Of a DNA stretch of 64,000 bases, positions 20,655 to 41,209 are shown in pieces. This DNA comes from Thermoplasmata archaeon (lineage in GTDB: Archaea > Thermoplasmatota > Thermoplasmata > Lutacidiplasmatales > UBA184): NCBI GenBank assembly GCA_035625165.1, contig DASPQC010000003.1, positions 2,101 through 66,100 of the forward strand, in the 5' to 3' direction. How positions within the stretch are numbered: position 1 is the stretch's first letter; the number at the start of each line of letters is the position of its first letter. A program made the position numbers and the translations under genes. The notes under the pieces are model-generated. The model had not been told where the DNA came from. It searched no databases and worked only from the letters and a program-made list of their open reading frames with translations.

Positions 20655-23600
20655 GTGAGCCGTTTTTCGGGCCATCCTCCGGCGTCCGGGGGAACGGGAC
20701 GTCAGGCTAGCCGAACGATGCGAGGAGCCCTCATCGCCCTCGTGGTGGTGCTCGCCGTGGTCGCGAGCAGCTTCCTGGTGGTCGCCCAGCGACCGGTCCT
20801 GCTTCCGGGAACGGCGCCGTCCACCGCCCCCGGGTCGCACCTTTCACCGGCGGGAATCGTCACCCATGGCGACCTCGTGGTCCTGCCGGGCACTGTCTAC
20901 ACGATCCACCCGACGCCCGGTTCGTCGAACTTCTACATGGGCGGGAACATCACGGTGGAAGCGGGCGGGACCCTGATTGTCCGCAACGTCACCGTCTCCT
21001 TCGTGGAGTTCGTCGGCGTTTCCGGTACCCCGATCTCCCGTCTCTCGCACATCTACCACTTCAATGACTTCGGGACGGTCGACCTGTACAACTCGACCGT
21101 CACGACGGAGGTCCTCGCGCTCCCGGATGCCTACGCGAAGCTCGCCCTCACCGTCACCGGCTCGATGTCGCTCTGGAACTCCTCGCTCGCCTTCCCCGGG
21201 TGGGTGACGGTGAACGGGACCGGCGCGACCCTCTACCTCAACAACTCCGCGATCCGATCGAATCCTGAGGTCGCGAGCCTGGTCGAGCCGTCCGTCATCC
21301 TGGGCGACACCGAGTGGGCGCCGACCGTCAAGGTCGAAGGCGGCGGAACCCTCGACCTGTTCGGGAGCCTGGTCAACAACACCTACGCGGACGATAGCCA
21401 AGTGAACGGCCTTCCGGCCCCTGTTCCGCTGAACGTCACGAACGTCGATCTGACGGGCGGTCTCAATTTCACGAGTCTCTTCACCCCGAGCGACACGGTG
21501 AACCTCTCGCGCGACTGGCTGTATCCGTACGGCGTCGCGGGTGGGGAGGTCGGGGTCTACTACAACGATACGAACGCCCTCGTGACCACCGTGGGCATCA
21601 CGGTGTGGTACGCCGGCGTCGGCTATCCGTTGGGTACGCTCACGCTCCTGAACGACACCATCAACGGGTTCACGGCGGTACCATTCACCGCCGCCCTCAC
21701 CCAAGCCGTCAACAAGGCGGGCATGCTGAACTACCTCAATTACACCGGCGACTTCGGAGTCGGCCCGTCCCGGATCGCCGTCGAGACCACATCCAGCTCG
21801 GGCCCGACGGTCCCGGTGAGCCAACTGTTCTTCGCCCTCACGCCTCCGCTCTCCTACGACATCACCGTGACCGGAGCGGGCTCTCAGCTCAACTCGGTCG
21901 ACACACCGTTCGACCTCACGTTCGCCGACGTCCCGGCGTCCCCGGTCTCCCAGGTCTCGCCCTACCCGTGGTTCTCGAACAAGCTCCTCTTGACGGACGG
22001 AGCGACCGCCTATCTCGGGAACATGACCATCCTGAACCCGATCCCGGGCGTCTTCACCACGTCCGCCATCCTACCGGACGCGACCAGCAACGCCTACCTC
22101 TACCGCTGGACCGGCTTCAACATGACCGGGCTTGGCGGGGTCCTTCCCGTCCAGGGCGGCACGGTCCACGCCTACTCCTCACTCAACGAGAGCGAGACGA
22201 ACAACGCCACGGCGAACCACCTCAACAACCTGTCCAGCGCGAACCCGGCGATCTGGAGCTACCTCCAGTACTGGGACGCGAAGCACGGCCTCCCGGCCTA
22301 CGGGACCTCCGGCTTCAACGGCACGGCGTATCTCCTGCTGGCCTCGAGCCAGGTCAACGGCACGACCCTACCAGACGGGAACTTCATCGGAGGATACCAT
22401 CTGTTCATCAAGGTCCCCGCCTCGACCAACAGCACCCGCTCGTTCAACTGGTCGGGGGTCTCGCCCTACCCGTTCGGAGTCGCCTTCGGCACCCCGCGGT
22501 ACGGCATGCCGGACTTCGGCCCGGGCATCAACTTCCCGTCGTACTTCGTCGGCCTCTCCGCGACGGCGATCGTGACCGCGAACGCCACCGTCGCGCCGAA
22601 CGCGACCGTGCGCATCGGCCAGGTGTTCGGGGCCGAGATGGTGCTGAACGACACCGGGACCGGAAAGGTGTTCTACGTTCAGGCGTCCCTCTACTGGAAC
22701 GCGACCAGGGAGCTCACGCTCGACCGGGCGGCCTTCCCGGTCGACCTGGTCGCCCCGGGCCAGAAGTTCATCTTCAACCTCACTTGGATAATCAACGACA
22801 CGATCACGGGGCTCCAGGGGAAGCCGTTCGCCCACCAGTTCGAGGTCAACGTCACCGTCAACGAGGACCTCGCGAAGTACGGTGGCCGGAACTTCAGCCT
22901 GGGGGTGCCCTCCGTCATCAAGCAGTCCGAGGTCGGTCTCTTTAACCTGAGCCTCCCGCCCTCGCCCCTTTCGCTCGGCGGGACGTACTTTACGGACGGC
23001 GTCGTCCGGTACAACGGCTCGCAGCCGGCCACGCTCTACGTCATCGCAACCCCTGTGAACGGAGGGGGCCAGATCACGATCGGCATCGGAGCGGCGTTCG
23101 CCGGACCGTTCACCGTCCACTGGCTGCCGCTCTCGAACTACCTCTCCGCGGGCACGACCTACTACATCAGCGTGGAGGCGATCTACAACAACGTCACCAA
23201 CCTCACCCGGCTCAGCGGCGAGTACTCGGTGCCGCCGAGCTCGCCGTCGGTGAGCAACTTCCTGTTCGAGAAGTTCCTCGGACTGCCGCTGTGGGCCTGG
23301 CTCGCCATCGCCGCCGCGGTCGCGGTCGGCATCGTCGCGGTCCTCCTGGTCGCCCGCCGCCAGGCGGCGGGAAAGCTGGTCGAGTGCGGGGAGTGCGGCA
23401 ACCTGATCCCCGAAGACGCGACGACGTGTCCGAAGTGCGGTGCCGAGTTCGAGAGCGACCTCATCCGCTGCAGCCGGTGCGCGTCGACCATCCCCGCCGA
23501 CTCGAAGTTCTGCCCCGAGTGCGCCGCCCAGCTGCTGGGGAAGCCCGGCGAGGGGGAGGCCGACCCGGAGCGGCAAGGGTACGACGACTACACGCAGAAG

Positions 23601-23975
23601 TACCGCGCCGAGGCGAAGAAGGAGCTCGGTGAGAACTACAACGAGGGGTCGTTCTGGGACTGGTGGAAGCGCCAGCCGACCTACACGTCGTTCAGCCAGT
23701 GGAAGCTGCAGCAGGGCCAGGGGATCCCCCGCGCCGGCATGACGGCCCCGCCGCCCGGCGAGGTGAGCGCCCCCACGGGTGGTCCTCCGAAGCAGGGCGG
23801 CGGCGCCGCGCCTGCGCCCGGTGACACCGGAGCCCCGCTGCGGGCCGCCGCGCCGACTCCGCCCGTGACCCCGCCCCCGGCCGCCGCCGGCGCGATGAAG
23901 CCCTGCCCGAGCTGCGGGAAGGAGATCCCGACAGAGTATCTCATCTGTCCGTTCTGCAGCGCCGTGACCCAGTGA
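20655..23975 (+). CDS. Giant N-glycosylation-rich surface protein with beta-helix-like region, one C-terminal TM and three cytoplasmic zinc ribbons
   Basis: Signal-anchor MRGALIALVVVLAVVASSFLVVAQ (alternative start ATG 20718) and about 34 N-x-S/T sequons by my count. TM is LWAWLAIAAAVAVGIVAVLLVA. It is followed by CGECGN..CPKCG, CSRCAS..CPECA, a Pro/Ala-rich linker, and CPSCGK..CPFCS. Confidence 0.8.
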   Translation: MSRFSGHPPASGGTGRQASRTMRGALIALVVVLAVVASSFLVVAQRPVLLPGTAPSTAPGSHLSPAGIVTHGDLVVLPGTVYTIHPTPGSSNFYMGGNITVEAGGTLIVRNVTVSFVEFVGVSGTPISRLSHIYHFNDFGTVDLYNSTVTTEVLALPDAYAKLALTVTGSMSLWNSSLAFPGWVTVNGTGATLYLNNSAIRSNPEVASLVEPSVILGDTEWAPTVKVEGGGTLDLFGSLVNNTYADDSQVNGLPAPVPLNVTNVDLTGGLNFTSLFTPSDTVNLSRDWLYPYGVAGGEVGVYYNDTNALVTTVGITVWYAGVGYPLGTLTLLNDTINGFTAVPFTAALTQAVNKAGMLNYLNYTGDFGVGPSRIAVETTSSSGPTVPVSQLFFALTPPLSYDITVTGAGSQLNSVDTPFDLTFADVPASPVSQVSPYPWFSNKLLLTDGATAYLGNMTILNPIPGVFTTSAILPDATSNAYLYRWTGFNMTGLGGVLPVQGGTVHAYSSLNESETNNATANHLNNLSSANPAIWSYLQYWDAKHGLPAYGTSGFNGTAYLLLASSQVNGTTLPDGNFIGGYHLFIKVPASTNSTRSFNWSGVSPYPFGVAFGTPRYGMPDFGPGINFPSYFVGLSATAIVTANATVAPNATVRIGQVFGAEMVLNDTGTGKVFYVQASLYWNATRELTLDRAAFPVDLVAPGQKFIFNLTWIINDTITGLQGKPFAHQFEVNVTVNEDLAKYGGRNFSLGVPSVIKQSEVGLFNLSLPPSPLSLGGTYFTDGVVRYNGSQPATLYVIATPVNGGGQITIGIGAAFAGPFTVHWLPLSNYLSAGTTYYISVEAIYNNVTNLTRLSGEYSVPPSSPSVSNFLFEKFLGLPLWAWLAIAAAVAVGIVAVLLVARRQAAGKLVECGECGNLIPEDATTCPKCGAEFESDLIRCSRCASTIPADSKFCPECAAQLLGKPGEGEADPERQGYDDYTQKYRAEAKKELGENYNEGSFWDWWKRQPTYTSFSQWKLQQGQGIPRAGMTAPPPGEVSAPTGGPPKQGGGAAPAPGDTGAPLRAAAPTPPVTPPPAAAGAMKPCPSCGKEIPTEYLICPFCSAVTQ

Positions 23976-33280: not shown

Positions 33281-34378
33281 ATGCGCGGTCTTGCCGGCCG
33301 TCCCGTGCAGCAAGAGAAGGCCCGCGGCTTTAGGGGTTTCGTCCAGACGGCCGCTGGCCGGGCGTTCCTGATCGCGCTGTCCCTCGTTCTGGTGTTCGCG
33401 ACGTTCACTTACGTCACTCCGCTGCTCGCGATCCCGGTCTTCCTGATCGTCGGTCTCGCGCTACCGATCTACTCCGGCCTCAAGCGCCCTCGATTCCTCG
33501 CCCTCTCTGGACTGGTCGTCATCCTGCTGCTGGCTCCGGTCGCGACCGCGGTCCTGAGCAGCGAGATCATGAGCCCGACCCCGGCCGCCAGCTCGAGCCC
33601 GGATCTTCCCGAGGGACACGGAGGGGCCGTGTTGCAGAACGCGTCCGTCGGCCCCTTCCTCGGCTCGACCTCGACCAACTTCACCTGGAACGTGACGATC
33701 TATCCCCAGTACCTCTCGCCGGACAACTCGTCGCCGCTCTGGCTCAGCCTCTACATCAGCACCTGTCCGGGCGCCACGGGTAACAGTTCACCCGTGTGCA
33801 GTGCGGGCTATCCGTTCTACAACCGCACGATCACCTTCCCCTCGGGGTACTGGGCCAATCACACCGGCCCGACGCGGGAGAGCTTCCGCTTCACGATCGG
33901 TTCGAATGGAATCTGGGATTGGCAGATGGGCCTCGCGATGGAGAACCTGTCCACCCACGGCCTCGAGTGGATTTTCCTCGTGGGGGACCCGCAATACGAC
34001 GGAATCGAAGGGCCCGTAATCGGCGGGTATGGCACCGTCTACTTCGCGCTCATCGGGTCAGTCTACCTTGAGTCGGCGCTCTACCTCGGCGCGCCCTACT
34101 TCATCGTCCTCCTCATCTACGTGGCGTTCAAGAACCGCGAGCGCCGACGGGCCGACAGCCAGCGGCGGCGGGCGGGGCCGGTGCCGCCGACCTCTCCGCC
34201 TCCCGCCGGGCCCAAGACCCCGCTACCGTCCGGCCCCCCGCCCGAATCGTCGGCGGCGGCCACCGCGGCCGCGGCGGCGGCCGCGGGAGAGATGACGTGC
34301 CCGAACTGCCACGCGGTGGTCTATGCGAACGAGGCCACCTGCTGGAAGTGCGGAACCGCGCTGAACCCCAAGGGCTGA
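33281..34378 (+). CDS. Membrane glycoprotein with cytoplasmic Pro/Ala-rich linker and C-terminal zinc ribbon
   Basis: N-terminal TM spans, extracellular part with NAS, NFT, NVT, NSS, NRT, NHT, NLS sequons, then a TM. The tail is RRRADSQRRR, Pro/Ala-rich, and ends in CPNCHAVVYANEATCWKCG. In-frame GTG 33305 fits the TAATTA box at 33272-33277 better than ATG 33281. Confidence 0.7.
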   Translation: MRGLAGRPVQQEKARGFRGFVQTAAGRAFLIALSLVLVFATFTYVTPLLAIPVFLIVGLALPIYSGLKRPRFLALSGLVVILLLAPVATAVLSSEIMSPTPAASSSPDLPEGHGGAVLQNASVGPFLGSTSTNFTWNVTIYPQYLSPDNSSPLWLSLYISTCPGATGNSSPVCSAGYPFYNRTITFPSGYWANHTGPTRESFRFTIGSNGIWDWQMGLAMENLSTHGLEWIFLVGDPQYDGIEGPVIGGYGTVYFALIGSVYLESALYLGAPYFIVLLIYVAFKNRERRRADSQRRRAGPVPPTSPPPAGPKTPLPSGPPPESSAAATAAAAAAAGEMTCPNCHAVVYANEATCWKCGTALNPKG

Positions 34379-34486: not shown

Positions 34487-36079
34487 CTAGTGCACGACGA
34501 TCGAGTACCCATCCCAGATGAGCGCCACCACGGTCCCGCTGGACGTGACCGTGAGGACGTCGATCATCGTGTACGTCCCCGCGACCGTGGGAACCCACCG
34601 GGTCTTCGACCCGACCGGGTCGACCACGACAGAAGAACCGGAGTTCACCGTCGTGGCACCGACCGAGTAGCTGTACGACTTACCGCTCGAGTTTGCGTAG
34701 ACCATCCCCGAGAAGGAGAGCGAGGCCGGCGCGCCGGTGCCTGTCCAGTTGTCCCAGACCGTGATGTTGAGGTACGGGCAGTACGGGGAGGCGGTCGCCG
34801 AGCACCCGCCCACGCCACCGCTGTGGGTGAAGGTGGTCGTGGGGACCGTGTAGACCTCGGTCTGGACCAGGTTGGCCGTCTTGAAGAGGGTTGAGCCCGA
34901 CGCGCTCCCGACCCCGGTGACGGTTGCCGAGGCCGTGACCAGAATGGTCGAGTTGAGGATCCATCCACTGTACGTGAGCGGGGTGGCGCTGTAGATCGTG
35001 ACAGACGATGGCCCCGTGATAGTGTACCCCGTCGCGCCGGCGAGGCTGACCGATTGCGGCTTCCACGGGCCGCCCACGGTCTGATTCACCCAGAAGGTGG
35101 CGGTCACCGGTTCGCCCGCGAGTGACCCGAGATAGGTCACGACCGCCGCAAAGTACCCGCTCGTGCCGGGGAGCACGGGGGGCTGCGGGATCATGACCAG
35201 GGAAACGGAAAGGACGGCGCCCGTCGTCAGCTTGTTCGCGATAGTGATCGTGACCTGGGCCGTCGTGTTCTGACCGGCGCCTCCCGCGGTAATGAACCCG
35301 TAGAACGTGCCCGACGTGTTGGTCGCACTGGCCGGGACCGTGTAGGTCCAGAGACCCTGAGCGTTCAGCGACATCGATTGAGAGACTGCAGAAAGGCCTG
35401 GAACCCCGCCCAGGTTCACGTAGACCGAGCCCGCCGTCACGGTGCCCGTGATCACGGCCCAGACTTGGAAGGTCGCTCCGAGGTAGGGCGACGCCGGGTT
35501 GGTGCCCGTCTGGGTAATGGTCGGTCCGACGGAGATAGCTAGACCGGGCAGGATCACACTGAAGTAGAGCTGGGTCGGCGAGACGATGAAGACCGTGATG
35601 TTGTCGGGGAGCGTCGGTTGCTGGTGGATCGGGAAGTAGTAGATCCATGTCTGCCCGAGATTCCAGGAACTCGCGTTGTTGATCCCCCAGGCCACGGGGA
35701 TCGGGGTTTGGAACTCCGGGGCGGTCGGGTTGCGTGCGGACTTGAAGTAGACCAGCAGGTTTCCGCCAGCGCCGGGGAGCGATGGCCCGGTCAGATGGAG
35801 GATCGAGATCCCCTTCAGTGAGGTCCCGTTCGAGGTCTTGATCAGGGCGGCTTGGAAGGAGTTCGAGTTCTGGGGAGGAGGGGATGGGAAGGTCGTCACC
35901 CATGCAAAGATCGAAGCGAACAAGGTTACCGTGAGGGCGAGGAGGATGATCGTCGCGACCACATCGGAAACTCCTCGCTGACGCGAGCGGAACCGGAGCG
36001 GGGCAAGTCGTCCCCTTGGGGTGTTCGAAAAGAGGAAGCCCGCGGCAGGGCGATGGCGGTTGACGCGCATATCGCCCAT
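34487..36079 (-). CDS. Large (530 aa) archaeal type-IV-pilin-like surface protein (class III signal peptide)
   Basis: ...RSRQRG|VSDVVATIILLALTVTLFASIFAWV is a basic leader, G/V cleavage context and hydrophobic helix (archaeal pilin/flagellin N-terminal type). The remainder is Thr/Ser/Gly/Val-rich beta sequence with many sequons (NGT, NAS, NIT, NTS, NTT, NQT, NST, NWT, NSS). Confidence 0.75.
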   Translation of the reverse strand: MGDMRVNRHRPAAGFLFSNTPRGRLAPLRFRSRQRGVSDVVATIILLALTVTLFASIFAWVTTFPSPPPQNSNSFQAALIKTSNGTSLKGISILHLTGPSLPGAGGNLLVYFKSARNPTAPEFQTPIPVAWGINNASSWNLGQTWIYYFPIHQQPTLPDNITVFIVSPTQLYFSVILPGLAISVGPTITQTGTNPASPYLGATFQVWAVITGTVTAGSVYVNLGGVPGLSAVSQSMSLNAQGLWTYTVPASATNTSGTFYGFITAGGAGQNTTAQVTITIANKLTTGAVLSVSLVMIPQPPVLPGTSGYFAAVVTYLGSLAGEPVTATFWVNQTVGGPWKPQSVSLAGATGYTITGPSSVTIYSATPLTYSGWILNSTILVTASATVTGVGSASGSTLFKTANLVQTEVYTVPTTTFTHSGGVGGCSATASPYCPYLNITVWDNWTGTGAPASLSFSGMVYANSSGKSYSYSVGATTVNSGSSVVVDPVGSKTRWVPTVAGTYTMIDVLTVTSSGTVVALIWDGYSIVVH

Positions 36080-36267: not shown

Positions 36268-36885
36268 CTACGGGAGGCTGGCGGGCGCAGTGTTGCCCGA
36301 GTAGGACCCCGTGCCGATCGCGATGAGCGAATAGCCGAGACCCGTGGTGGCCGTGGTCGTCCCCATGTCCACGATGACGTTGAACACGTTCGTGAGGGGA
36401 GTGGCCGACGTGTAGGTTCCCGTCGTGGTGCAGACCGCGCTCATCACCAGGGCCGTGGTCGCCGCGATGGCCGAGTAGCAGGCCGGAGTGCCTCCCGCGA
36501 GCGGCTCAACGGCGAACCCGCCCGCGTTCGCGCCGGTCGACACGACACCGCCCGCGGCTGTCTTGACCTCAAACAACACACTGCCGAGCGAGACCGTTGA
36601 AGTCTCGACCGTCAGGGTGTAGATGAAGTCGCCCTGCGTGCAGCCCTTGGTAGCGACAGTTCCACCGGCTCCGACGGAACACGTGGAACTAACCGCAGCT
36701 CCCATGCTGAACGCCGACCCGATCGGTGTGGACCCGGGTCCGTGCGTCAGCCCAGAGATCAGCACGTAGAGCACAGCGGCCAGCACGACCGTAATCGCGA
36801 CCAGTAGAATCGTCGCGATGATCGGCGATACCCCGCGCTTCCGCGCTTTTCTCCAGCTTCGCTCTCGCTTGCCGAATACGTTCAT
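36268..36885 (-). CDS. Archaeal type-IV pilin-like protein (class III signal peptide), 205 aa
   Basis: MNVFGKRERSWRKARKRG|VSPIIATILLVAITVVLAAVLYVLISGL is a canonical archaeal prepilin N-terminus. The C-terminal globular part is Thr/Gly/Ala-rich and contains cysteines. Confidence 0.8.
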   Translation of the reverse strand: MNVFGKRERSWRKARKRGVSPIIATILLVAITVVLAAVLYVLISGLTHGPGSTPIGSAFSMGAAVSSTCSVGAGGTVATKGCTQGDFIYTLTVETSTVSLGSVLFEVKTAAGGVVSTGANAGGFAVEPLAGGTPACYSAIAATTALVMSAVCTTTGTYTSATPLTNVFNVIVDMGTTTATTGLGYSLIAIGTGSYSGNTAPASLP

Positions 36886-36990
36886 TCGCTTCTTCCTCCG
36901 ATGGGTCGGATGACCCGCGGGTGTCGCTATGCGCGAGCACCGGTATATGAAGCCCTATGGTTCATCAGCCGGCAACAAGCGAACTGTAAT

Positions 36991-37004
36991 ACGTCAATTG
37001 ACGT
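36991..37004. repeat. Perfect 14-bp palindrome ACGTCAATTGACGT, with ACGTCA(AT) half-sites at 37040-37047 and 37390-37395 and CGTCA inside the inverted repeat GAACCGTCAGGTTC at 37107-37120
   Basis: Read directly from the sequence. All copies lie inside the ~575-bp spacer between the divergent pilin and RHH genes. Confidence 0.7.
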
Positions 37005-37359
37005 GATACACACTAATGCGCATAGTGACACACCTCCGCACGTCAATGCGGCGCACGCGGGGGGAGGGCCCTCGGCCGATGCTGCGCTCGTTTTCGGTCC
37101 GGAAACGAACCGTCAGGTTCAAAAACTATTGTCTCGGCAAGCAACGGGGCGTTTTGGGGTCGAACAGTGCGAGCAGTTTCGCCCACCGCCCAGTCGCATT
37201 GGACCAGGCGGGAACGGCATCTCAGCTACCGAGCCGGACCCGCCCGATCTCCCTCAGTAGGAAGCCGCGGAGCCGAGAGATCGAGCGCAAACGGCGTAGC
37301 CACGAACGATTACGTGTACGCAGAGGGAAGTTATACTCAGTGAATGGGACACTTGCGGA

Positions 37360-37389
37360 GCGTTCGACGCGATCGCGGTTGCGTTCGAC
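37360..37389 (+). repeat. Direct repeat GCGTTCGAC x2 (37360-37368 and 37381-37389, 21-bp register) flanking the palindrome CGCGATCGCG (37368-37377)
   Basis: Read directly. Further GTTCGAC copies lie at 37489-37495 and, inverted as GTCGAAC, at 37159-37165. Confidence 0.7.
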
Positions 37390-37450
37390 ACGTCAGAAAT
37401 TCCACACGATAAGTGTGCTGGCCAGAAAGCGAGAGAGTCGCGTGCTCCGG

Positions 37451-37458
37451 TTTAAGTA
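37451..37458 (+). promoter_or_regulatory. TATA-like box (TTTAAGTA) for the RHH / FtsZ-like unit
   Basis: AT-rich octamer. If it is used, the transcript would start near 37480, which favours in-frame GTG 37487 over GTG 37460 as the start codon. Confidence 0.35.
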
Positions 37459-37459
37459 G

Positions 37460-37987
37460 GTGAAACTAACATCCCTTTGCTCGACTGTGTTCGACAACGC
37501 TCCGAAAGGGAAACCGGACCGCGCTCGCGAGCCGGAGGTACCTCGGGAGACCGCCGAGGACGCGCGCATCGCCCTACGGTGCAACCGCAAGGAGCTCCAG
37601 CTGGTCGACTCGTTCGTGGCAAGCGGCGAGTTCACGACCCGCTCCGAGCTCATGCGGGCGGCGCTGCATGCGTTCCTGCAGTCCCGGGCGCTGTCGACGG
37701 CCCCCACTCCCCCTGTGGACGCCGAGGGCTTCATCGAGGTCCCCGTGCGCCTGCGACCGGAGGAGTACGCCGACCTCGAGGCCTACGCCCGGTTGGTCGC
37801 GAACGGCCGGAAGGCGAGCGACGTGCTCGCCGAGTTCGTCCGCCGCGGCGAGATCGAGCTCAAGGCCCGGGAGCTCGCGCAGCGTGCGCGGGCCTCCGTC
37901 CGCGAGGCGGTCGAGACCCGCACCCAGGTCGGCGAGCTCGTCCAAAGCGGCAAGGAGCTGGAGCGGAAAGGGGTCGTCGGGCGGTAG
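37460..37987 (+). CDS. Ribbon-helix-helix (CopG/Arc/MetJ-type) DNA-binding protein with a second RHH-like repeat and C-terminal coiled coil
   Basis: RHH-1 is ARIALRCNRKELQLVDSFVASGEFTTRSELMRAALHAFL. A second similar unit is IEVPVRLRPEEYADLEAYARLVANGRKASDVLAEFVRRG. The charged heptad-like tail is IELKARELAQRARASVREAVETRTQVGELVQSGKELERKG. Start is uncertain (37460 or 37487). Confidence 0.7.
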   Translation: MKLTSLCSTVFDNAPKGKPDRAREPEVPRETAEDARIALRCNRKELQLVDSFVASGEFTTRSELMRAALHAFLQSRALSTAPTPPVDAEGFIEVPVRLRPEEYADLEAYARLVANGRKASDVLAEFVRRGEIELKARELAQRARASVREAVETRTQVGELVQSGKELERKGVVGR

Positions 37988-38020
37988 GAGGAGCATGCCG
38001 AACGTGGTCGAGGGGGGGTT

Positions 38021-38941
38021 GTGGGGACCTACGAGGCCGAGCGCGCGAACGGAGAACGACCAGTAACGCAGTCGAACGGCGGACCCAGAGAGGACGCGTG
38101 GCCCGCCCACCTGCGGCTGGGCCAGGAGGTCCGGGTCGTCCTCGCGGCCGTCGGGGGCGGAGCCATCCGCATCGGCGCGGAGATCGCGCGCCGTCACATT
38201 CGTCACCTGGAAACGGTCGCCATCAACTGCGACCCGAAGGTCCAGTCCTACGAGGAGTTCGACCGGAGGGTGTACCTAGGCCCTGATACCGGCACCGAAG
38301 GAGATACCGGCGGCTCTCCCGTCGTCGGGGGTACTCTCGCCGGAGCGGCCGAGCCAGCCCTCGAGCGAATCTTCCGCGGCGCGACCTTCGTGATCCTCGT
38401 GGGAAGCCTCGGCGGAGGCGCGGGCAGCGGCGCCCTCCCGTACATCCTCGAGGTGGCGAGCCGGAATGCCGAGGTCGTGAGCGTCTTCGTGGTGAAGCCG
38501 TTCCGATGCGAGGGCGACCGACGTGCGCTCGCGGACCGGGCCATCGGCCGACTGCATCTGATTTCGGCCTTCGTCGAGAAGCGGGAGCGCGGGCGGGCGA
38601 CCTTCCAGACGCTCGACAACGAGAGCCTGGTCGCGACCCAGGCCCACCTTGCCTTCTCGCGGGTGACGGCCCACTGGGCCCACGTCATCGAGACCCACAT
38701 CCAGCGGTCCTACCTGGACCCGGCCGAAGCGATGATCGAGGCTGCGCATGCGGCAGAGATTTCAATGCTCGCGGAGGCGACGGTCACGGAGCCCCCGGCC
38801 GTCTTTGCCCCGCCCGAATCCCCGCTCCCCGCCCCACCCGTCCCTCTGCCCCCCTTGGTTCCGGCCGCCCCAGCGACGGGGGCCGAAGTGGAGCTGACCT
38901 TCGAGGTCGTGCCCGAGGCCCGGTCCCCCTCTGCGTCCTAA
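38021..38941 (+). CDS. FtsZ/tubulin-superfamily GTPase, N-terminal domain only, with Pro-rich tail
   Basis: It aligns by eye to the FtsZ N-domain. Matches are VVLAAVGGGAIRIG (G1/T1), ETVAINCD (cf. VAINTD), FVILVGSLGGGAGSGALP (T4 GGGTGSG signature) and VVKPFRCEGDRR (cf. PFxFEGxxR). Further matches are LDNESL (cf. IPNDxL), LAF... (H7) and YLDPAEAM (cf. T7 NVDFADV). About 75 Pro/Ala-rich residues then end in AEVELTFEVVPE, and no FtsZ C-terminal domain is present. Confidence 0.8.
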   Translation: MGTYEAERANGERPVTQSNGGPREDAWPAHLRLGQEVRVVLAAVGGGAIRIGAEIARRHIRHLETVAINCDPKVQSYEEFDRRVYLGPDTGTEGDTGGSPVVGGTLAGAAEPALERIFRGATFVILVGSLGGGAGSGALPYILEVASRNAEVVSVFVVKPFRCEGDRRALADRAIGRLHLISAFVEKRERGRATFQTLDNESLVATQAHLAFSRVTAHWAHVIETHIQRSYLDPAEAMIEAAHAAEISMLAEATVTEPPAVFAPPESPLPAPPVPLPPLVPAAPATGAEVELTFEVVPEARSPSAS

Positions 38942-39005
38942 CCCTTTCCCGGGCGAGCGCCGGCCTCCTTGGGCGCTCGCCCCTTAATGTTAAGACGGGG
39001 GTCGT

Positions 39006-39188
39006 TTGCGTCCAAGGGCGATGAACGGTCGGCTCGCGACGGTCCTCTTGACGCTCGTGCTGCCGGCCGCCCTCATCGGAGTGACGATCTACCGATTCGC
39101 GTCAAACCCAATCGCGATCCTCGTCCTGGTCGCGGTCATGGTTGGCGGCAGCTTCTACCTCTTGACCTACCAAGAGACGTTCGCGTAG
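39006..39188 (+). CDS. Hypothetical 60-aa two-TM membrane protein
   Basis: Two hydrophobic helices (LATVLLTLVLPAALIGVTIY and IAILVLVAVMVGGSFYLL). Co-directional, 64 nt after the FtsZ-like gene. Confidence 0.4.
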   Translation: MRPRAMNGRLATVLLTLVLPAALIGVTIYRFASNPIAILVLVAVMVGGSFYLLTYQETFA

Positions 39189-39232: not shown

Positions 39233-40057
39233 TCAGCGGTACATTTCGCCGACCGGAGTGGTGGGGGTCTCCGGGTGCGCCTGCCGGTGGGCCTTCAGGG
39301 CGGCGCGGAGGGCCTTCTCGATCTCCTCCGCCTGCGCGCGCAGGGGGCCGGTGTCGATCTTAATCTCGGGGAGCAGACGGTCGAGGGTTTCGATCAGCGC
39401 CGCGGCTGCCCGATGGTCGGGTAGTCCCTCGGCGAGCCGTGTGCTCACCAGCAGGACCGCGACCGGGATTGTCCGGCCGATCCCCTGCACCAGGAGGGAG
39501 CCGGACACCCCCCCGATCACGCCGTCCTCGAGCGCCCGCGCGCGGGTCGGCTCAAAGGCCTTGAGCACGCCCGCATCCCGCCGGGAGTAGGCGACCCATA
39601 CCTGCTCGGGGGCCGCGTCGGTCCGGGCCTCGGCCGTGGGCTCGGCCGAGCCTTCCGCACCACCGCCCTCCGACTCCTCTTCCTCGGTGATGGGGTGGGG
39701 TACGACTCCTTCGAGCCCGACGATCAGGCGGACCTTCCGGCGCTCGGCATTGTCCAGGATCGTCTTCGCGATCGCGTTCGCTTGGGCCGGGGAAGGAGGG
39801 AACTCCGAGATCACCAGTCCCACGTTTCCGCGCCCGTAGACCCGGACCGCCGGGTGGACGATGCCACCCTGAATGACCGCGATCGGGGAGAGGTCGGGGG
39901 ACTCGAACCGGCCGACGCGCGGGAGCGTGAGCGAGCGCACCATGTAGTGCCCGGCGACAATCGATGCGAGGCCTGCGCTCGGGAACGCCGTGATCATCAC
40001 GGACCCGGGGCTGGGACCCACGCTGGACGGACCTTCCTCGCGCCAGACGAACTCCAT
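39233..40057 (-). CDS. PAC2-family proteasome assembly chaperone (PbaA/PbaB-like)
   Basis: VMITAFPSAGLASIVAGHYMV... and LIVGLEGV match the PAC2 core. The C-terminus ...GEMYR is an HbYX motif (M-Y-R). Start set at ATG 40057, and the 645-aa track ORF is upstream read-through. Confidence 0.75.
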   Translation of the reverse strand: MEFVWREEGPSSVGPSPGSVMITAFPSAGLASIVAGHYMVRSLTLPRVGRFESPDLSPIAVIQGGIVHPAVRVYGRGNVGLVISEFPPSPAQANAIAKTILDNAERRKVRLIVGLEGVVPHPITEEEESEGGGAEGSAEPTAEARTDAAPEQVWVAYSRRDAGVLKAFEPTRARALEDGVIGGVSGSLLVQGIGRTIPVAVLLVSTRLAEGLPDHRAAAALIETLDRLLPEIKIDTGPLRAQAEEIEKALRAALKAHRQAHPETPTTPVGEMYR

Positions 40058-40174
40058 TGGTGGCCACCGCGGGACCGATGACGCTGCTCCTAAAGAGCGT
40101 CGGGGTTCACTCGCCGCGCTCCGGCGGCCTCGCGCGACGCCAAACCCAAGTACTCTTCCCCGCTCCTCGGCGAC

Positions 40175-41209
40175 GTGGGGCTCCCACTCAAGGACCTCGT
40201 GACGGCACAGGAGCTGCCGTGGGAGGCGCTCGCGGGTCGCACGCTCGCGGTCGACGGGTACAACGCCGCCTATCAGTTCCTCGCGACCATCCGACAGCGG
40301 GACGGCCAGCTGTTCTCCGACCCGGACGGGCGAGTGACGAGCCACCTTATGGGCGTCTTCTACCGGACGACGGCCCTCCTGAGGGAGGGAGTACTGCCGG
40401 TCTGGGTCTTCGATGGGCGACCGCCGGAGCGGAAGGCCGGCACCATCCGTGCCCGAATCGCCGCCAAGGAACGGGCGGAAGGGGAGTGGCAGGCGGCACT
40501 GGCCGTGGGGGACCTCGAGACCGCCCGGCGCAAGGCCGCGCAGACCTCCCGCCTCACGCGCGAGATGGTCGAGGAGCTCAAGGAGCTGCTCGGGGCACTC
40601 GGTGTGCCGGCGCTTCAGGCCCCCGGGGAAGGGGAGGCCCAGGCCGCCCAGATGGCCGCGCGGGGAGCGGTCTGGGCGAGCGCGTCGGAGGACTACGACA
40701 GCCTTCTGTTCGGCGCTCCTCGCCTCGTTCGCGGACTGGCGGCTCGCGGCCGCGCGGGCACGAGCCCCGGGGCCCAGCTGGTCGTGCGAGAGGACCTGCT
40801 CGCGACTCTCGGCATCGACGGGGAGGAACTCATCCTCCTCGGCATCATCGTCGGCACGGACTTCAACGACGGCGTGCGAGGGTACGGTCCGAAGAAGGCG
40901 TTGAAGCTCGTGAAGGACCACCTGGGATTCGAGGCGACCGTGAAGAAGGTCGGCCTCGACCTCGCCGAGTCGACCGAGGTCGCGGAGATCTTCCGTCATC
41001 CCAGCGCCGCCGAGATGCCGGCGCCATCGTTCGGGCCGGTGGACGAGGCGAAGGTGCTGAAGGTCCTCGTGGAAGGACACGGGTTCGCGGAGGCTCGGGT
41101 CCGGGCGGCGATCGCCCGGGCCCGGCAGCGTCCCTCCTCCGGCGCGACGCCGGCCGAGACCCGCGGACACCAGACCCTTCTCGAGACGTTCGGAGGTTCC
41201 CCTCCATGA
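40175..41209 (+). CDS. fen: Flap endonuclease 1
   Basis: LAVDGYNAAYQFL, VWVFDGRPPERK, GEGEAQAAQMA, EDYDSLLFGAP, GTDFN. C-terminal PIP-like tail QTLLETF. Confidence 0.92.
   Translation: MGLPLKDLVTAQELPWEALAGRTLAVDGYNAAYQFLATIRQRDGQLFSDPDGRVTSHLMGVFYRTTALLREGVLPVWVFDGRPPERKAGTIRARIAAKERAEGEWQAALAVGDLETARRKAAQTSRLTREMVEELKELLGALGVPALQAPGEGEAQAAQMAARGAVWASASEDYDSLLFGAPRLVRGLAARGRAGTSPGAQLVVREDLLATLGIDGEELILLGIIVGTDFNDGVRGYGPKKALKLVKDHLGFEATVKKVGLDLAESTEVAEIFRHPSAAEMPAPSFGPVDEAKVLKVLVEGHGFAEARVRAAIARARQRPSSGATPAETRGHQTLLETFGGSPP

Follow-up and report, generated by a model that had tools for sequence, protein, structure and literature searches.

The locus described here raises the question of what an FtsZ-type GTPase that ends before its C-terminal domain could be doing between an RHH regulator and a very small membrane protein, and of whether such a cassette constitutes a system of its own or a form of one already known. 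It lies in the window, by which we mean the whole 64,000-nucleotide stretch of Thermoplasmata archaeon DNA that was analyzed. Three co-directional open reading frames on the plus strand (RHH, FtsZ-like, and small TM gene) were confirmed at the coordinates and with the gaps of 33 nt and 64 nt given in the preliminary description, and profile searches together with the hydrophobic helices upheld the gene identities proposed there (RHH, FtsZ-type GTPase, and two-TM protein). The third-position GC of the three genes (0.84-0.89, compared to 0.69 for the whole window) was coding-like. The most likely translation starts are GTG at 37487 for the RHH gene, on which the NCBI record and most homologues agree, and ATG at 39021 for the small gene; with these revisions the gap between the FtsZ-like and small genes becomes 79 nt. 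The three genes are as follows.

37487 to 37987, plus strand: RHH regulator, 166 aa (reading frame open from 37460; 423 homologues)
38021 to 38941, plus strand: truncated FtsZ, 306 aa
39021 to 39188, plus strand: 55-aa two-TM protein, pattern MDGR..T.LL...LPA.LIGVTV..F.SNP.AI..L..VM..G.FYLLTY.E.F

The Pfam Tubulin profile (PF00091) matched residues 42-175 of the FtsZ-like protein with 47.6 bits against a cut-off of 33. The AF2 model displayed a GTPase domain followed by a long helix at residues 212-255 (core pLDDT 86-97), and its top 50 Foldseek matches were all FtsZ (probability 1.00, TM ∼0.55), aligned over ∼195 columns at an rmsd of ∼2.5 Å. The tubulin-like fold anticipated for the 306-aa protein was thereby tested, and the AF2 and Foldseek results show an FtsZ GTPase fold; with a PF00091 score above the gathering threshold and the core helix H7 following the GTPase fold, the protein belongs to the tubulin/FtsZ superfamily. 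Its parts, all on the plus strand, are listed below.

38126 to 38620: GTPase domain (residues ∼36-200)
38654 to 38785: helix H7 and degenerate T7 region (residues 212-255)
Following these, ahead of the C-terminal peptide: variable Pro-rich linker
38885 to 38911: conserved C-terminal peptide EVELTFEVV (residues 289-297)

Against TIGR00065 the same protein scored 65.8 bits, where the cut-off is 295, and the match was confined to profile positions 18-160 of 353; Pfam FtsZ_C (PF12327) was not matched, and tblastn searches with the C-terminal domains of FtsZ from M. jannaschii (FtsZ1) and Natronoplasma gave no hits to the window or to 80 related loci in any reading frame. The Pfam, TIGR00065, and tblastn results thus bear out the claim that this FtsZ homologue has no C-terminal domain. 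Canonical FtsZ (TIGR00065; PDB 1FSZ, 6UMK, and 3VO8) shares with it the nucleotide loops T1-T6 and H7, whereas ∼100 residues of the C-terminal domain (S7-S10, H9-H10) are missing and a 10-residue helical insertion precedes S6. The GTP motifs were retained (GGGA, NCD, DTGGSP, GGGAGSG, PFRCEG, and LDNE), with SLGGGAGSGALP invariant in alignment A1 of the close family where the superfamily signature is GGGTG[ST]G. The T7 region consists of [FY]L[AD]PxE plus a deletion in place of NxDxxD, and the Glu alone is invariant. W219 was nearly invariant, H226 and P234 were conserved, and E236 was invariant in alignment A1; among the more divergent members in alignment A4, E236 was the only one of these four residues still invariant. 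The FtsZ-like gene is under strong purifying selection. A disordered linker followed by a conserved C-terminal peptide is the layout of the normal FtsZ linker and tail, and the GID-type SepF-binding motif is absent from the EVELTFEV tail. In archaeal FtsZ, the GID motif binds SepF (PMC8178401).

Could the short protein come from an ordinary ftsZ2 that is frameshifted, broken in the assembly, or assigned a wrong 3' end? More than 120 independent protein clusters at 60-74% identity, drawn from 80 species genomes and many assemblies, were all 302-323 aa in length, and several independent contigs carried the identical 306-aa protein (five carriers examined). In addition, the conserved C-terminal peptide stands after the linker, no remnant of the C-terminal domain was detected in any frame, and the third-position GC of the gene is coding-like at 0.84. 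We consider artefact or decay extremely improbable on these grounds; a canonical ftsZ2 with a mis-assembled or mis-called 3' end is refuted by the constant length and the missing C-domain remnant.

The trio was found in ∼73 of 80 species-level genomes of the UBA184 / Ca. Lutacidiplasma lineage of Thermoplasmata, an order of uncultured soil archaea. Among the remaining loci, several are cut by a contig end (L087, L091, and L096), L074 has a broken FtsZ-like match, and at least one, L030, has space downstream, yet no detectable small gene. Two distant members, L011 and L012, carried the trio in a different gene neighborhood, so that the check for synteny outside the source genome was positive. 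The locus is single-copy and chromosomal, sits in a housekeeping-like context, and is vertically inherited; no viral or defense-system relatives and no mobile-element context were found for it. The nearby pilin-like genes, which the preliminary description had mentioned, were detectable in 29 of the 80 genomes and absent in the distant members, and this neighborhood is incidental. A literature search returned no description of the truncated-FtsZ trio form.

For the RHH protein, the best NCBIfam match was CdrS (NF058555; E 2.3e-5, 24.3 bits), far below the equivalog cut-off of ≥100 bits, and Pfam RHH_1 matched residues 36-73 just under its cut-off (E 0.003). The AF2 model (pLDDT 70) retrieved ParD RHH domains as its top Foldseek matches (probability 0.97, TM(target) 0.74, rmsd 0.9 Å); by profile and by fold, unit 1 belongs to the RHH superfamily. 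Within the 166 residues we distinguish three parts.

Residues ∼25-68: unit 1, CdrS-like RHH
Residues ∼84-125: second unit, predicted strand-helix-helix
Residues 110-160: long C-terminal helix

Comparison of unit 1 with the partner proteins from Natronoplasma and the Methanomassiliicoccales gave hhalign probabilities of 94-95%. As for the second RHH-like unit that had been suggested, the secondary-structure pattern was indeed predicted, but the unit was undetectable by sequence in the RHH family of the window (unit 1 versus unit 2, E 0.17); the case for a second RHH unit is a structural one, from the predicted fold.

The relatives of these two proteins point to the origin of the locus. CdrS was the top NCBIfam match for the RHH proteins of Natronoplasma (8e-22, two stretches), the Methanomassiliicoccales (7e-7), and the L011 clade (3e-3). 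In Ca. Natronoplasma, another member of the Thermoplasmatota, a tandem CdrS-like RHH gene precedes a full-length 336-aa FtsZ with FtsZ_C, and the nearest full-length relatives fall with the FtsZ2 of haloarchaea and not with FtsZ1. Some relatives of the Natronoplasma FtsZ terminate in ...NNGLDVIR, a close match to the C-terminal peptide of H. volcanii FtsZ2, SDGGRDEVEKNNGLDVIR, as quoted in 10.1101/2020.06.04.133736. A neighbor-joining tree (187 columns, modest support, and a long high-GC branch) placed the truncated forms within the FtsZ2-like assemblage and not with M. jannaschii FtsZ1 or the "IPN" group; in this simple tree the truncated forms were monophyletic in 60 of 100 bootstraps. The T6 motif xDN[NDE] is common to the family of the window and the FtsZ2-like assemblage, and a cdrS/parD-type RHH gene lies directly upstream of the FtsZ-like gene, as expected for the FtsZ2 lineage. 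Pairing of ftsZ2 with cdrS/parD has been reported across archaea (PMC7439475, PMC8178401), with the parD pairing described as frequent (PMC8178401), and CdrS and FtsZ2 have a demonstrated role in cell division (PMC7439475).

Shorter FtsZ-like proteins of 266-303 aa with the same arrangement of GTPase domain, H7, and disordered tail occur in the Methanomassiliicoccales and other Thermoplasmatota MAGs (P0285, P0272, P0284, P0298, P0299, and P0344), and they possibly correspond to arCOG14071. These are much less diverged from FtsZ2 (229 bits to TIGR00065, with the match extending through position 229) and group with the family of the window in 60% of bootstraps. The Methanomassiliicoccales-type locus L008 has an RHH gene upstream, as in the window, and differs in that it lacks the two-TM partner gene and the EVELTFEV tail and has another repeat motif, TATGACA. 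Because both truncated, RHH-paired Methanomassiliicoccales forms and the Natronoplasma tandem RHH/full-length FtsZ pair exist, sequence comparison indicates that the locus derives from archaeal cdrS-ftsZ2, a known cell-division locus, in a form specific to this lineage, and is not a separate system. The preliminary description had pointed to cdrS-ftsZ2 and had also set the locus apart from it; with CdrS as the best-matching family and FtsZ2-like relatives, the former stands and the latter does not.

The likeness to the cdrS-ftsZ2/cdrL arrangement of Halobacteria and other Euryarchaeota (PMC7439475, 10.1101/2020.06.04.133736) extends to the co-oriented RHH gene directly upstream of an FtsZ2-lineage gene, the chromosomal, vertically inherited, housekeeping character, and a promoter region with a conserved architecture resembling regulator-binding sites. 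The differences are nevertheless considerable. CdrS has ∼60 aa and a single RHH, whereas the RHH protein of the window has 166 aa, a predicted second strand-helix-helix unit, and a 50-residue helix; the FtsZ of the window has neither the C-terminal domain nor the NxDxxD T7 motif nor a GID tail; the locus adds a conserved 55-aa two-TM gene; and the curated cut-offs for CdrS and FtsZ are both missed by wide margins.

Upstream of the RHH gene, the spacer spans 36886-37486 with the revised start (601 bp). Its GC content of 0.57-0.62, compared to ∼0.69-0.74 in the flanks, and its rank as the largest intergenic gap in the annotated parts of the window agree with the long, GC-poorer non-coding stretch noted previously. 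GTTCGAC occurs on the plus strand at 37362, 37383, and 37489 and once on the minus strand at 37159, and ACGTCA occurs at 36991, 37040, and 37390. GTTCGAC is not rare by itself (30 copies in the window versus 18.9 expected); the cluster is more than chance because the same positions, -125/-104/+2 from the start codon, are kept in 61-64 related species. It is this conservation of position that substantiates the clustered cis repeats claimed for the spacer. The elements of the region are these.

37330 to 37336, plus strand: GTTATAC, TATA-like, candidate distal promoter ∼30 nt 5' of box 1
37360 to 37369, plus strand: box 1, GCGTTCGACG (core GTTCGAC at 37362-37368)
37380 to 37397, plus strand: box 2, TGCGTTCGACACGTCAGA (core at 37383-37389), 21 nt 3' of box 1
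37450 to 37459, plus strand: GTTTAAGTAG, TATA-like box, 36-28 nt 5' of the GTG start
37484 to 37499, plus strand: box 3, CTGTGTTCGACAACGC, overlapping the GTG start codon at 37487

GTTATAC was at least 90% conserved across 61 species and invariant in the five-sequence alignment A3. Box 1 stood at -125/-124 in most of 64 genomes (column conservation of at least 75%) and box 2 at -104/-103 in nearly all of them (core at least 90% conserved). GTTTAAGTAG kept a constant distance to the start in 61 species, with conservation of at least 90%; a promoter role for it is suggested by the usual geometry of archaeal promoters, and its position would imply a leaderless or near-leaderless mRNA. All 64 of the 64 genomes had GTGTTCGACAA at the position of box 3, with GTG as start codon in every case; part of this conservation could be coding constraint, because the conserved protein start MFDN is encoded within box 3. 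In the L011 clade, TTTAAATA precedes two TGTCCGACAAAA boxes 24 nt apart, and the Methanomassiliicoccales have five or six TATGACA repeats around the TATA box. Since their positions are fixed beside TATA-like boxes in 61-64 genomes, the GTTCGAC boxes are probably RHH operators.

A partition logic of the ParMRC/TubZRC type had also been suggested. On such a reading, the boxes would be a centromere recognized by the RHH adaptor, whose C-terminal region would link them to FtsZ-like filaments for chromosomal segregation. ParR is an RHH protein, and parC repeats overlap the promoter. By analogy the parts list is alike, with a DNA-binding RHH protein, a filament-superfamily NTPase with a conserved tail, and promoter-overlapping repeats. 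In the RHH protein, an interaction surface might be provided by its long C-terminal helix together with its conserved C-terminus. Those systems, however, have iteron arrays and reside on plasmids or phages, whereas the window has three boxes only, all in promoter/transcription-start geometry, in a single-copy chromosomal locus that is housekeeping-like, vertically inherited, and without viral or defense relatives. The NTPase showed no specific homology to ParM or TubZ and no TubZ/PhuZ similarity beyond the common GTPase fold (PHROG PhuZ, E 1e-4; PDB matches all FtsZ), and the homology of the locus is to CdrS and FtsZ2, which are cell-division proteins (PMC7439475). The partition logic was not sustained beyond analogy, given the promoter-placed boxes, the lack of TubZ similarity, and the lack of mobile-element context, and we judge a segregation function very unlikely.

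Two further families were considered for the FtsZ-like protein. FtsZl1 and FtsZl2 are, like it, divergent members of the FtsZ superfamily with the canonical C-domain absent or unrecognizable. FtsZl1 has ∼1000 aa with a coiled coil, an alpha-helical C-domain, and vWA/OmpA/kinase contexts, and FtsZl2 has a 300-aa C-region (PMC2875224). Membership in either was rejected (Tubulin_2 E 0.36, only 306 aa, H7 clearly kept, and unrelated neighbors). A PDB profile search with the FtsZ-like family matched 49 sequences, all FtsZ; CetZ membership was rejected as only these FtsZ-annotated chains reached E 0.001. CetZ structures are present in the PDB.

The 75 distinct sequences of the third gene, whose product has two hydrophobic helices, aligned gap-free with an invariant SNP loop and a YLLTY motif common to all; the gene lies mostly 59-135 nt 3' of the FtsZ-like gene, and it is also present in the distant clade L011/L012. 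The two-TM protein had no match in any family library searched, and it exposes only ∼5 cytoplasmic residues per end. The region ahead of it contains two elements.

38951 to 38982, plus strand: GC-rich hairpin in the gap between the FtsZ-like and small genes, read from the sequence (11-bp stem, 38951-38961 / 38972-38982)
38984 to 38995, plus strand: TTAATGTTAAG, TATA-like box, with TTAAG at -31 to -27 from the small-gene ATG

A TTAAG/TTATG element was found ∼27-33 nt 5' of the small-gene ATG in most of ∼70 loci, and the two-TM gene thus apparently has its own promoter, judging from this motif. By eye, several related loci show similar GC-rich inverted repeats at the hairpin position.

As the best explanation overall we favor a cdrS-ftsZ2 derivative in which the half-FtsZ is a partner-dependent, GTP-dependent membrane or division factor, a reading to which we give about an even chance of being correct. 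The RHH protein would bind the near-palindromic TGTTCGACA boxes, as their position and conservation suggest: two boxes 21 nt apart, just 3' of the distal TATA-like box, and one at the proximal, putatively leaderless promoter, where it overlaps both the start codon and the site of transcription initiation. Such binding may regulate the RHH and FtsZ-like genes at the level of transcription, in the way that CdrS/CdrL act on ftsZ2. The half-FtsZ would bind GTP and would no longer form the canonical head-to-tail interface alone; it would most likely be a GTP-dependent, membrane-associated division or membrane-remodeling factor that acts upon or together with other machinery; its intact nucleotide face might, for instance, dock on a full-length FtsZ1 filament. 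The reduced ESCRT system of the Thermoplasmata may be an alternative partner, and the two-TM protein would be the membrane partner. This partner-dependent mechanism is a conjecture. Against the explanation as a whole, the two-TM protein offers almost no soluble surface to bind the EVELTFEV peptide, and that tail is without the archaeal GID motif.

A different possibility, which we hold to be unlikely but worth weighing, is that the protein is a minimal FtsZ forming self-sufficient cytomotive filaments, with a new longitudinal interface made from the extended H7 and the T7 remnant, the invariant Glu236 as a catalytic residue, and the two-TM protein as an anchor replacing SepF. In canonical FtsZ, the lower face of the subunit interface comes mostly from the C-terminal domain, all of which is missing here, as is the NxDxxD motif. 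The strong constraint on the H7/T7 region and the tight linkage of the TM and FtsZ-like genes would fit such a filament, as would the linker and conserved tail, which is the FtsZ layout for reaching membrane anchors (PMC12583498), and the reports of some Thermoplasmata with FtsZ but without SepF or PRC-barrel proteins (PMC10936438). The Methanomassiliicoccales form has no TM partner, however, and the ∼5 cytoplasmic residues at each end of the TM protein likewise argue against this proposal.

The partner-dependent derivative of cdrS-ftsZ2 remains our preferred reading. To our knowledge, all well-studied FtsZ/tubulin filaments need both protein halves; the T7 loop, a part of the C-terminal domain, is what completes the GTPase site of the neighboring subunit. 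Here, in 80 species or more, an FtsZ2 paralogue that has stably dispensed with the C-terminal half stands beside its regulator and a new membrane partner, and it represents a natural experiment on what the GTPase domain is capable of alone. In the boldest form, which we regard as improbable, division or membrane remodeling throughout an order of archaea would rely on a "half tubulin", a GTPase-only FtsZ2 acting as a novel-interface polymer or a GTP-regulated FtsZ1 cap and tethered by a 55-aa two-TM partner instead of SepF. With its conserved boxes and promoter elements, the locus offers a direct way to test CdrS-type regulation outside the haloarchaea. It would also inform the understanding of how division works in the Thermoplasmata, a group with a reduced ESCRT system in which the presence of SepF, PRC-barrel proteins, and FtsZ itself varies (PMC10936438).

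The window is a chromosomal segment of 69% GC from an uncultured Thermoplasmata archaeon. The three co-directional open reading frames proposed in the preliminary description were confirmed, with coding-like third-position GC of 0.84-0.89, and NCBI assigns locus tags VEH57_00660 and VEH57_00665 to the two larger genes. Homologue lengths and nucleotide conservation favored GTG 37487 over 37460 as the RHH start, because the stretch before MFDNA lacks protein-level conservation and holds an invariant TATA-like box; the spacer upstream is therefore 601 bp. Its lower GC content was also verified (57-62%, versus ∼70% on both flanks). The genes discussed here are as follows.

20655-23975 (+), protein of ∼1085-1106 aa whose family matches are zinc-ribbon/DZR domains only
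33281-34378 (+), 365-aa multi-pass membrane protein with a C-terminal zinc ribbon/double-zinc-ribbon-like motif (weak Pfam matches)
34487-36079 (-) and 36268-36885 (-), two archaeal type IV pilin-like genes with class III signal peptide, divergent from the trio
37487-37987 (+), RHH gene, 166 aa
38021-38941 (+), truncated FtsZ (half-FtsZ), 306 aa
39021-39188 (+), small two-TM gene starting at ATG 39021, 55 aa
39233-40057 (-), PAC2-family (proteasome assembly chaperone-like) gene, convergent with the small gene

In half-FtsZ, the Pfam Tubulin domain covered residues 42-175 above threshold, the TIGR00065 match was limited to profile positions 18-160 of 353, and no FtsZ_C domain was found in the Pfam/family-model search. 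Alignment of 32 sequences revealed that the family keeps all nucleotide-binding motifs (GGGA, NCD, DTGGSP, SLGGGAGSGALP, KPFRCEG.RR, and TLDNE), then a highly conserved helix (HWA..IE.HIE.SFLAP.EA), a variable linker rich in Pro, and a conserved terminal tail, E[VA]ELTFE[VI]. Where full-length archaeal FtsZ has its T7 loop (sLINlDfaD), half-FtsZ has the shorter [FY]L[AD]P.E, and homology ends there. AlphaFold2 yielded a confident GTPase domain, a single long helix (212-255), and a disordered tail. The anticipated tubulin-like fold was supported by Foldseek, which matched FtsZ structures only (∼195 columns aligned), and a PDB profile search likewise returned only FtsZ. Cys70 (38228-38230; NCD, loop T2) and Cys163 (38507-38509; FRCEG, loop T5) are invariant in the close half-FtsZ family, whereas canonical FtsZ has Thr and Phe at these positions; Cys70 is ∼90% conserved in the wider family. 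Possibly the two residues give the nucleotide pocket a redox or metal feature.

The truncation might have reflected a mis-assembled ftsZ2, as the preliminary description allowed. That scenario was rejected because the protein is 302-323 aa in all of >120 clusters at 60-74% identity, the same truncated form is present in 80 species-level genomes, and queries with the C-domains of two archaeal FtsZs, run against all frames, detected no C-terminal domain remnant in the window or in 80 related loci. An artefact or pseudogene is thereby refuted.

All 80 genome matches were labeled Thermoplasmata, including UBA184 and Ca. Lutacidiplasma silvani, members of the Lutacidiplasmatales/TMEG lineage (PMC9287336). 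Carriers of the trio include near-complete MAGs, with contigs such as CAVTJV010000007.1 (1.8 Mb), CAWEHV010000002.1 (2.3 Mb), and JAKIWE010000001.1 (1.2 Mb). The trio proved syntenic in related genomes by tblastn, which placed the RHH gene ∼40-50 nt before half-FtsZ and the 55-aa gene mostly 59-135 nt beyond it in ∼73 of 80, several of the remaining loci ending at a contig edge; in a few genomes an additional gene separates the FtsZ-like and small genes (gaps of 660-1315 nt). The distant clade L011/L012 (35% identity) keeps all three genes, with NDK, Sua5, and a peptidase upstream and RNA polymerase downstream, and the linkage thus exceeds frozen gene order since these loci hold the trio in another neighborhood. 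A full-library profile search resolved the half-FtsZ family into about ten 50%-identity clusters and, past a score gap, shorter truncated FtsZ-like proteins (266-303 aa). One of these, from Methanomassiliicoccales MAGs, has an RHH gene upstream and scored 229 bits to the FtsZ model, with a match extending through position 229; the small two-TM gene is absent at this locus.

Housekeeping genes surround the trio in the window (phosphoglycerate mutase, TYW2, PEP synthase, PAC2, FEN1, primase, RIO kinase, and an NADH dehydrogenase operon), and no further FtsZ, SepF, or Cdv gene occurs within its 64 kb. The PAC2-family gene keeps its position beside the small gene in 74/80 related genomes, though not in the distant L011 clade; a 645-aa open reading frame listed at 39233-41170 was rejected as an over-extension across FEN1 on the opposite strand. 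An adjacent pilin was detectable in only 29/80 related loci, so this neighbor does not count as a component of the module. The gene for the 365-aa zinc-ribbon membrane protein is syntenic across L001-L006, loci of related genomes, and it may merit attention because two division proteins of haloarchaea, CdrL and CdpC, have zinc ribbons.

The top-scoring full-length relatives of half-FtsZ were the FtsZs of Altiarchaeum, Nanoarchaeum (NEQ473), and Ca. Natronoplasma (Thermoplasmatota), in which the T6 motif is xDN[ND] rather than IPN. P0268 from Ca. Altiarchaeum hamiconexum (826 aa), which among full-length relatives is closest to the half-FtsZ profile, is a single-chain fusion of two complete FtsZ units and is conserved across many Altiarchaeum assemblies. 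The Natronoplasma locus reads L7Ae-S28e-L24e-NDK, then a 106-aa RHH protein with two significant RHH_1/CdrS stretches, then a 336-aa FtsZ in which the FtsZ_C domain is present. Some homologues of this FtsZ terminate in ...NNGLDVIR, closely matching the C-terminal peptide of H. volcanii FtsZ2, SDGGRDEVEKNNGLDVIR (Liao et al., 10.1101/2020.06.04.133736), which places the set in the FtsZ2 family. A simple NJ tree was built from 187 N-terminal columns; M. jannaschii FtsZ1 (verified identical to PDB 1W58/1FSZ) served as the labeled FtsZ1. All truncated forms fell within the FtsZ2-like assemblage. They grouped together in 60/100 bootstraps, and the high-GC family, comprising the window's protein and its close relatives, was monophyletic in 100/100. 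CdrS was the top NCBIfam match of the RHH partner in 4/4 lineages examined. The cdrS-ftsZ2 division locus is widely conserved in archaea (PMC7439475), and ftsZ2 is found "frequently with parD" (PMC8178401). On these sequence comparisons, namely the full-length relatives, the Natronoplasma gene order, the tree placement, the CdrS matches, and the published cdrS/parD-ftsZ2 pairing, the RHH/half-FtsZ pair most likely derives from a cdrS-ftsZ2 locus. The protein was probably truncated before the Lutacidiplasmatales-type clade and the Methanomassiliicoccales-type forms diverged.

Unit 1 (∼25-68), the first RHH-like stretch of the RHH protein, was confirmed as RHH by hhalign to the partner proteins (probability 94-95%), and Foldseek with the model found ParD RHH domains. 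The second RHH-like unit that had been proposed was borne out in part. The model contains a second strand-helix-helix pattern (∼84-125) and a final helix running to residue 160, and unit 2 lies where the Natronoplasma protein has its second RHH, a significant one, but sequence comparison gave no support for it as an RHH: hhalign was not significant for unit 1 versus unit 2 (E 0.17) or for unit 2 versus the second RHH of the Natronoplasma or Methanomassiliicoccales protein. The modeled architecture is likely a tandem RHH plus long helix.

Footprinting of the spacer across 61-64 species identified the following elements.

37330, conserved element GTTATAC
-125 and -104, GTTCGAC boxes 1 and 2, 21 nt apart
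-36 to -28, TATA-like box GTTTAAGTA
around 37487-37497, box 3, GTGTTCGACAA, in which the RHH start codon is embedded in 64/64 genomes, with a GTG start in every one

The clustered GTTCGAC motifs of the preliminary description thus stand on their conserved positions and not on over-representation, the heptamer being common in this genome (30 copies in the window versus 18.9 expected). Over 64 related loci the DNA of the RHH gene does not vary in the start codon or the first four codons while the proteins are just 50-75% identical, which suggests that GTGTTCGACAA is under dual coding and operator constraint. From the usual archaeal promoter geometry, the proximal TATA-like box is predicted to give a near-leaderless transcript with its first base a few bases ahead of box 3 (near 37482), and the distal element a transcript starting immediately ahead of box 1 (near 37358). 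Related clades share this layout. In the L011 clade, TTTAAATA precedes two TGTCCGACAAAA boxes spaced 24 nt. At the Methanomassiliicoccales locus (L008 7380-7500), the TTAAATA box ahead of the RHH/truncated-FtsZ pair is surrounded by five or six copies of TATGACA, a lineage-specific counterpart of the GTTCGAC boxes. We infer that the RHH protein may autoregulate, since a conserved architecture with lineage-specific boxes is expected if the protein and its operators co-evolve; the candidate operator DNA is TGTTCGACA. A known RNA in the spacer was rejected, as Rfam yielded no family for the whole window at gathering thresholds or for the spacer at E≤1.

A 57-nt nested palindrome containing ACGTCA (ACGTCAATTGACGT ... 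AATGCGCAT ... ACGTCAAT; 36991-37047) occupies the region ∼105-160 nt ahead of the divergent pilin gene. L004-L007 retain it with hardly a base changed, and since its substitutions are not compensatory, it resembles a protein operator more than an RNA. Confined to a subclade (12/61 related genomes), it was rejected as part of the trio and probably belongs to the pilin-side promoter.

The 75 distinct small-protein sequences share the consensus MDGR..T.LL...LPA.LIGVTV..F.SNP.AI..L..VM..G.FYLLTY.E.F, with two TM helices linked by an invariant SNP loop and few residues exposed at either end. The protein was unmatched in every library searched (Pfam, NCBIfam, defence-system, and phage libraries). 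A TTAAG/TTATG element ∼30 nt upstream of its ATG and a preceding GC-rich hairpin suggest a separate leaderless transcript.

ParMRC/TubZRC-like partition logic had also been put forward; what favors it is analogy, and a partition-type role of the trio appears highly improbable. The defence-system library gave no support for the trio proteins, the viral-contig scan found no relatives, and phage-library matches were weak (a transcriptional-repressor PHROG for the RHH protein, E 5e-5; a PhuZ PHROG, E 1e-4). Building on the observed homology, architecture, linkage, and conserved cis elements of the trio, we propose that the RHH protein would control the operon via the boxes and that half-FtsZ would bind GTP. 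With the C-terminal domain and NxDxxD motif missing, half-FtsZ alone could not form the canonical interface. The main alternative, a self-sufficient minimal filament that would use the conserved H7/T7-remnant surface, seems rather unlikely.

Full-text searches on FtsZ in Thermoplasmata, Methanomassiliicoccales, or Lutacidiplasmatales and on truncated FtsZ generally, and the main FtsZ, tubulin-family, and ESCRT surveys, yielded no account of the half-FtsZ form; a table entry in Makarova et al. may be the Methanomassiliicoccales truncated form. We prefer, at about even chances, the reading of half-FtsZ as a GTP-dependent, membrane-associated division factor that would act with other machinery, the two-TM protein being its membrane partner. 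The survey by Makarova et al. also reports FtsZ without SepF or PRC-barrel proteins in several Thermoplasmata (PMC10936438), which fits a re-wired system.
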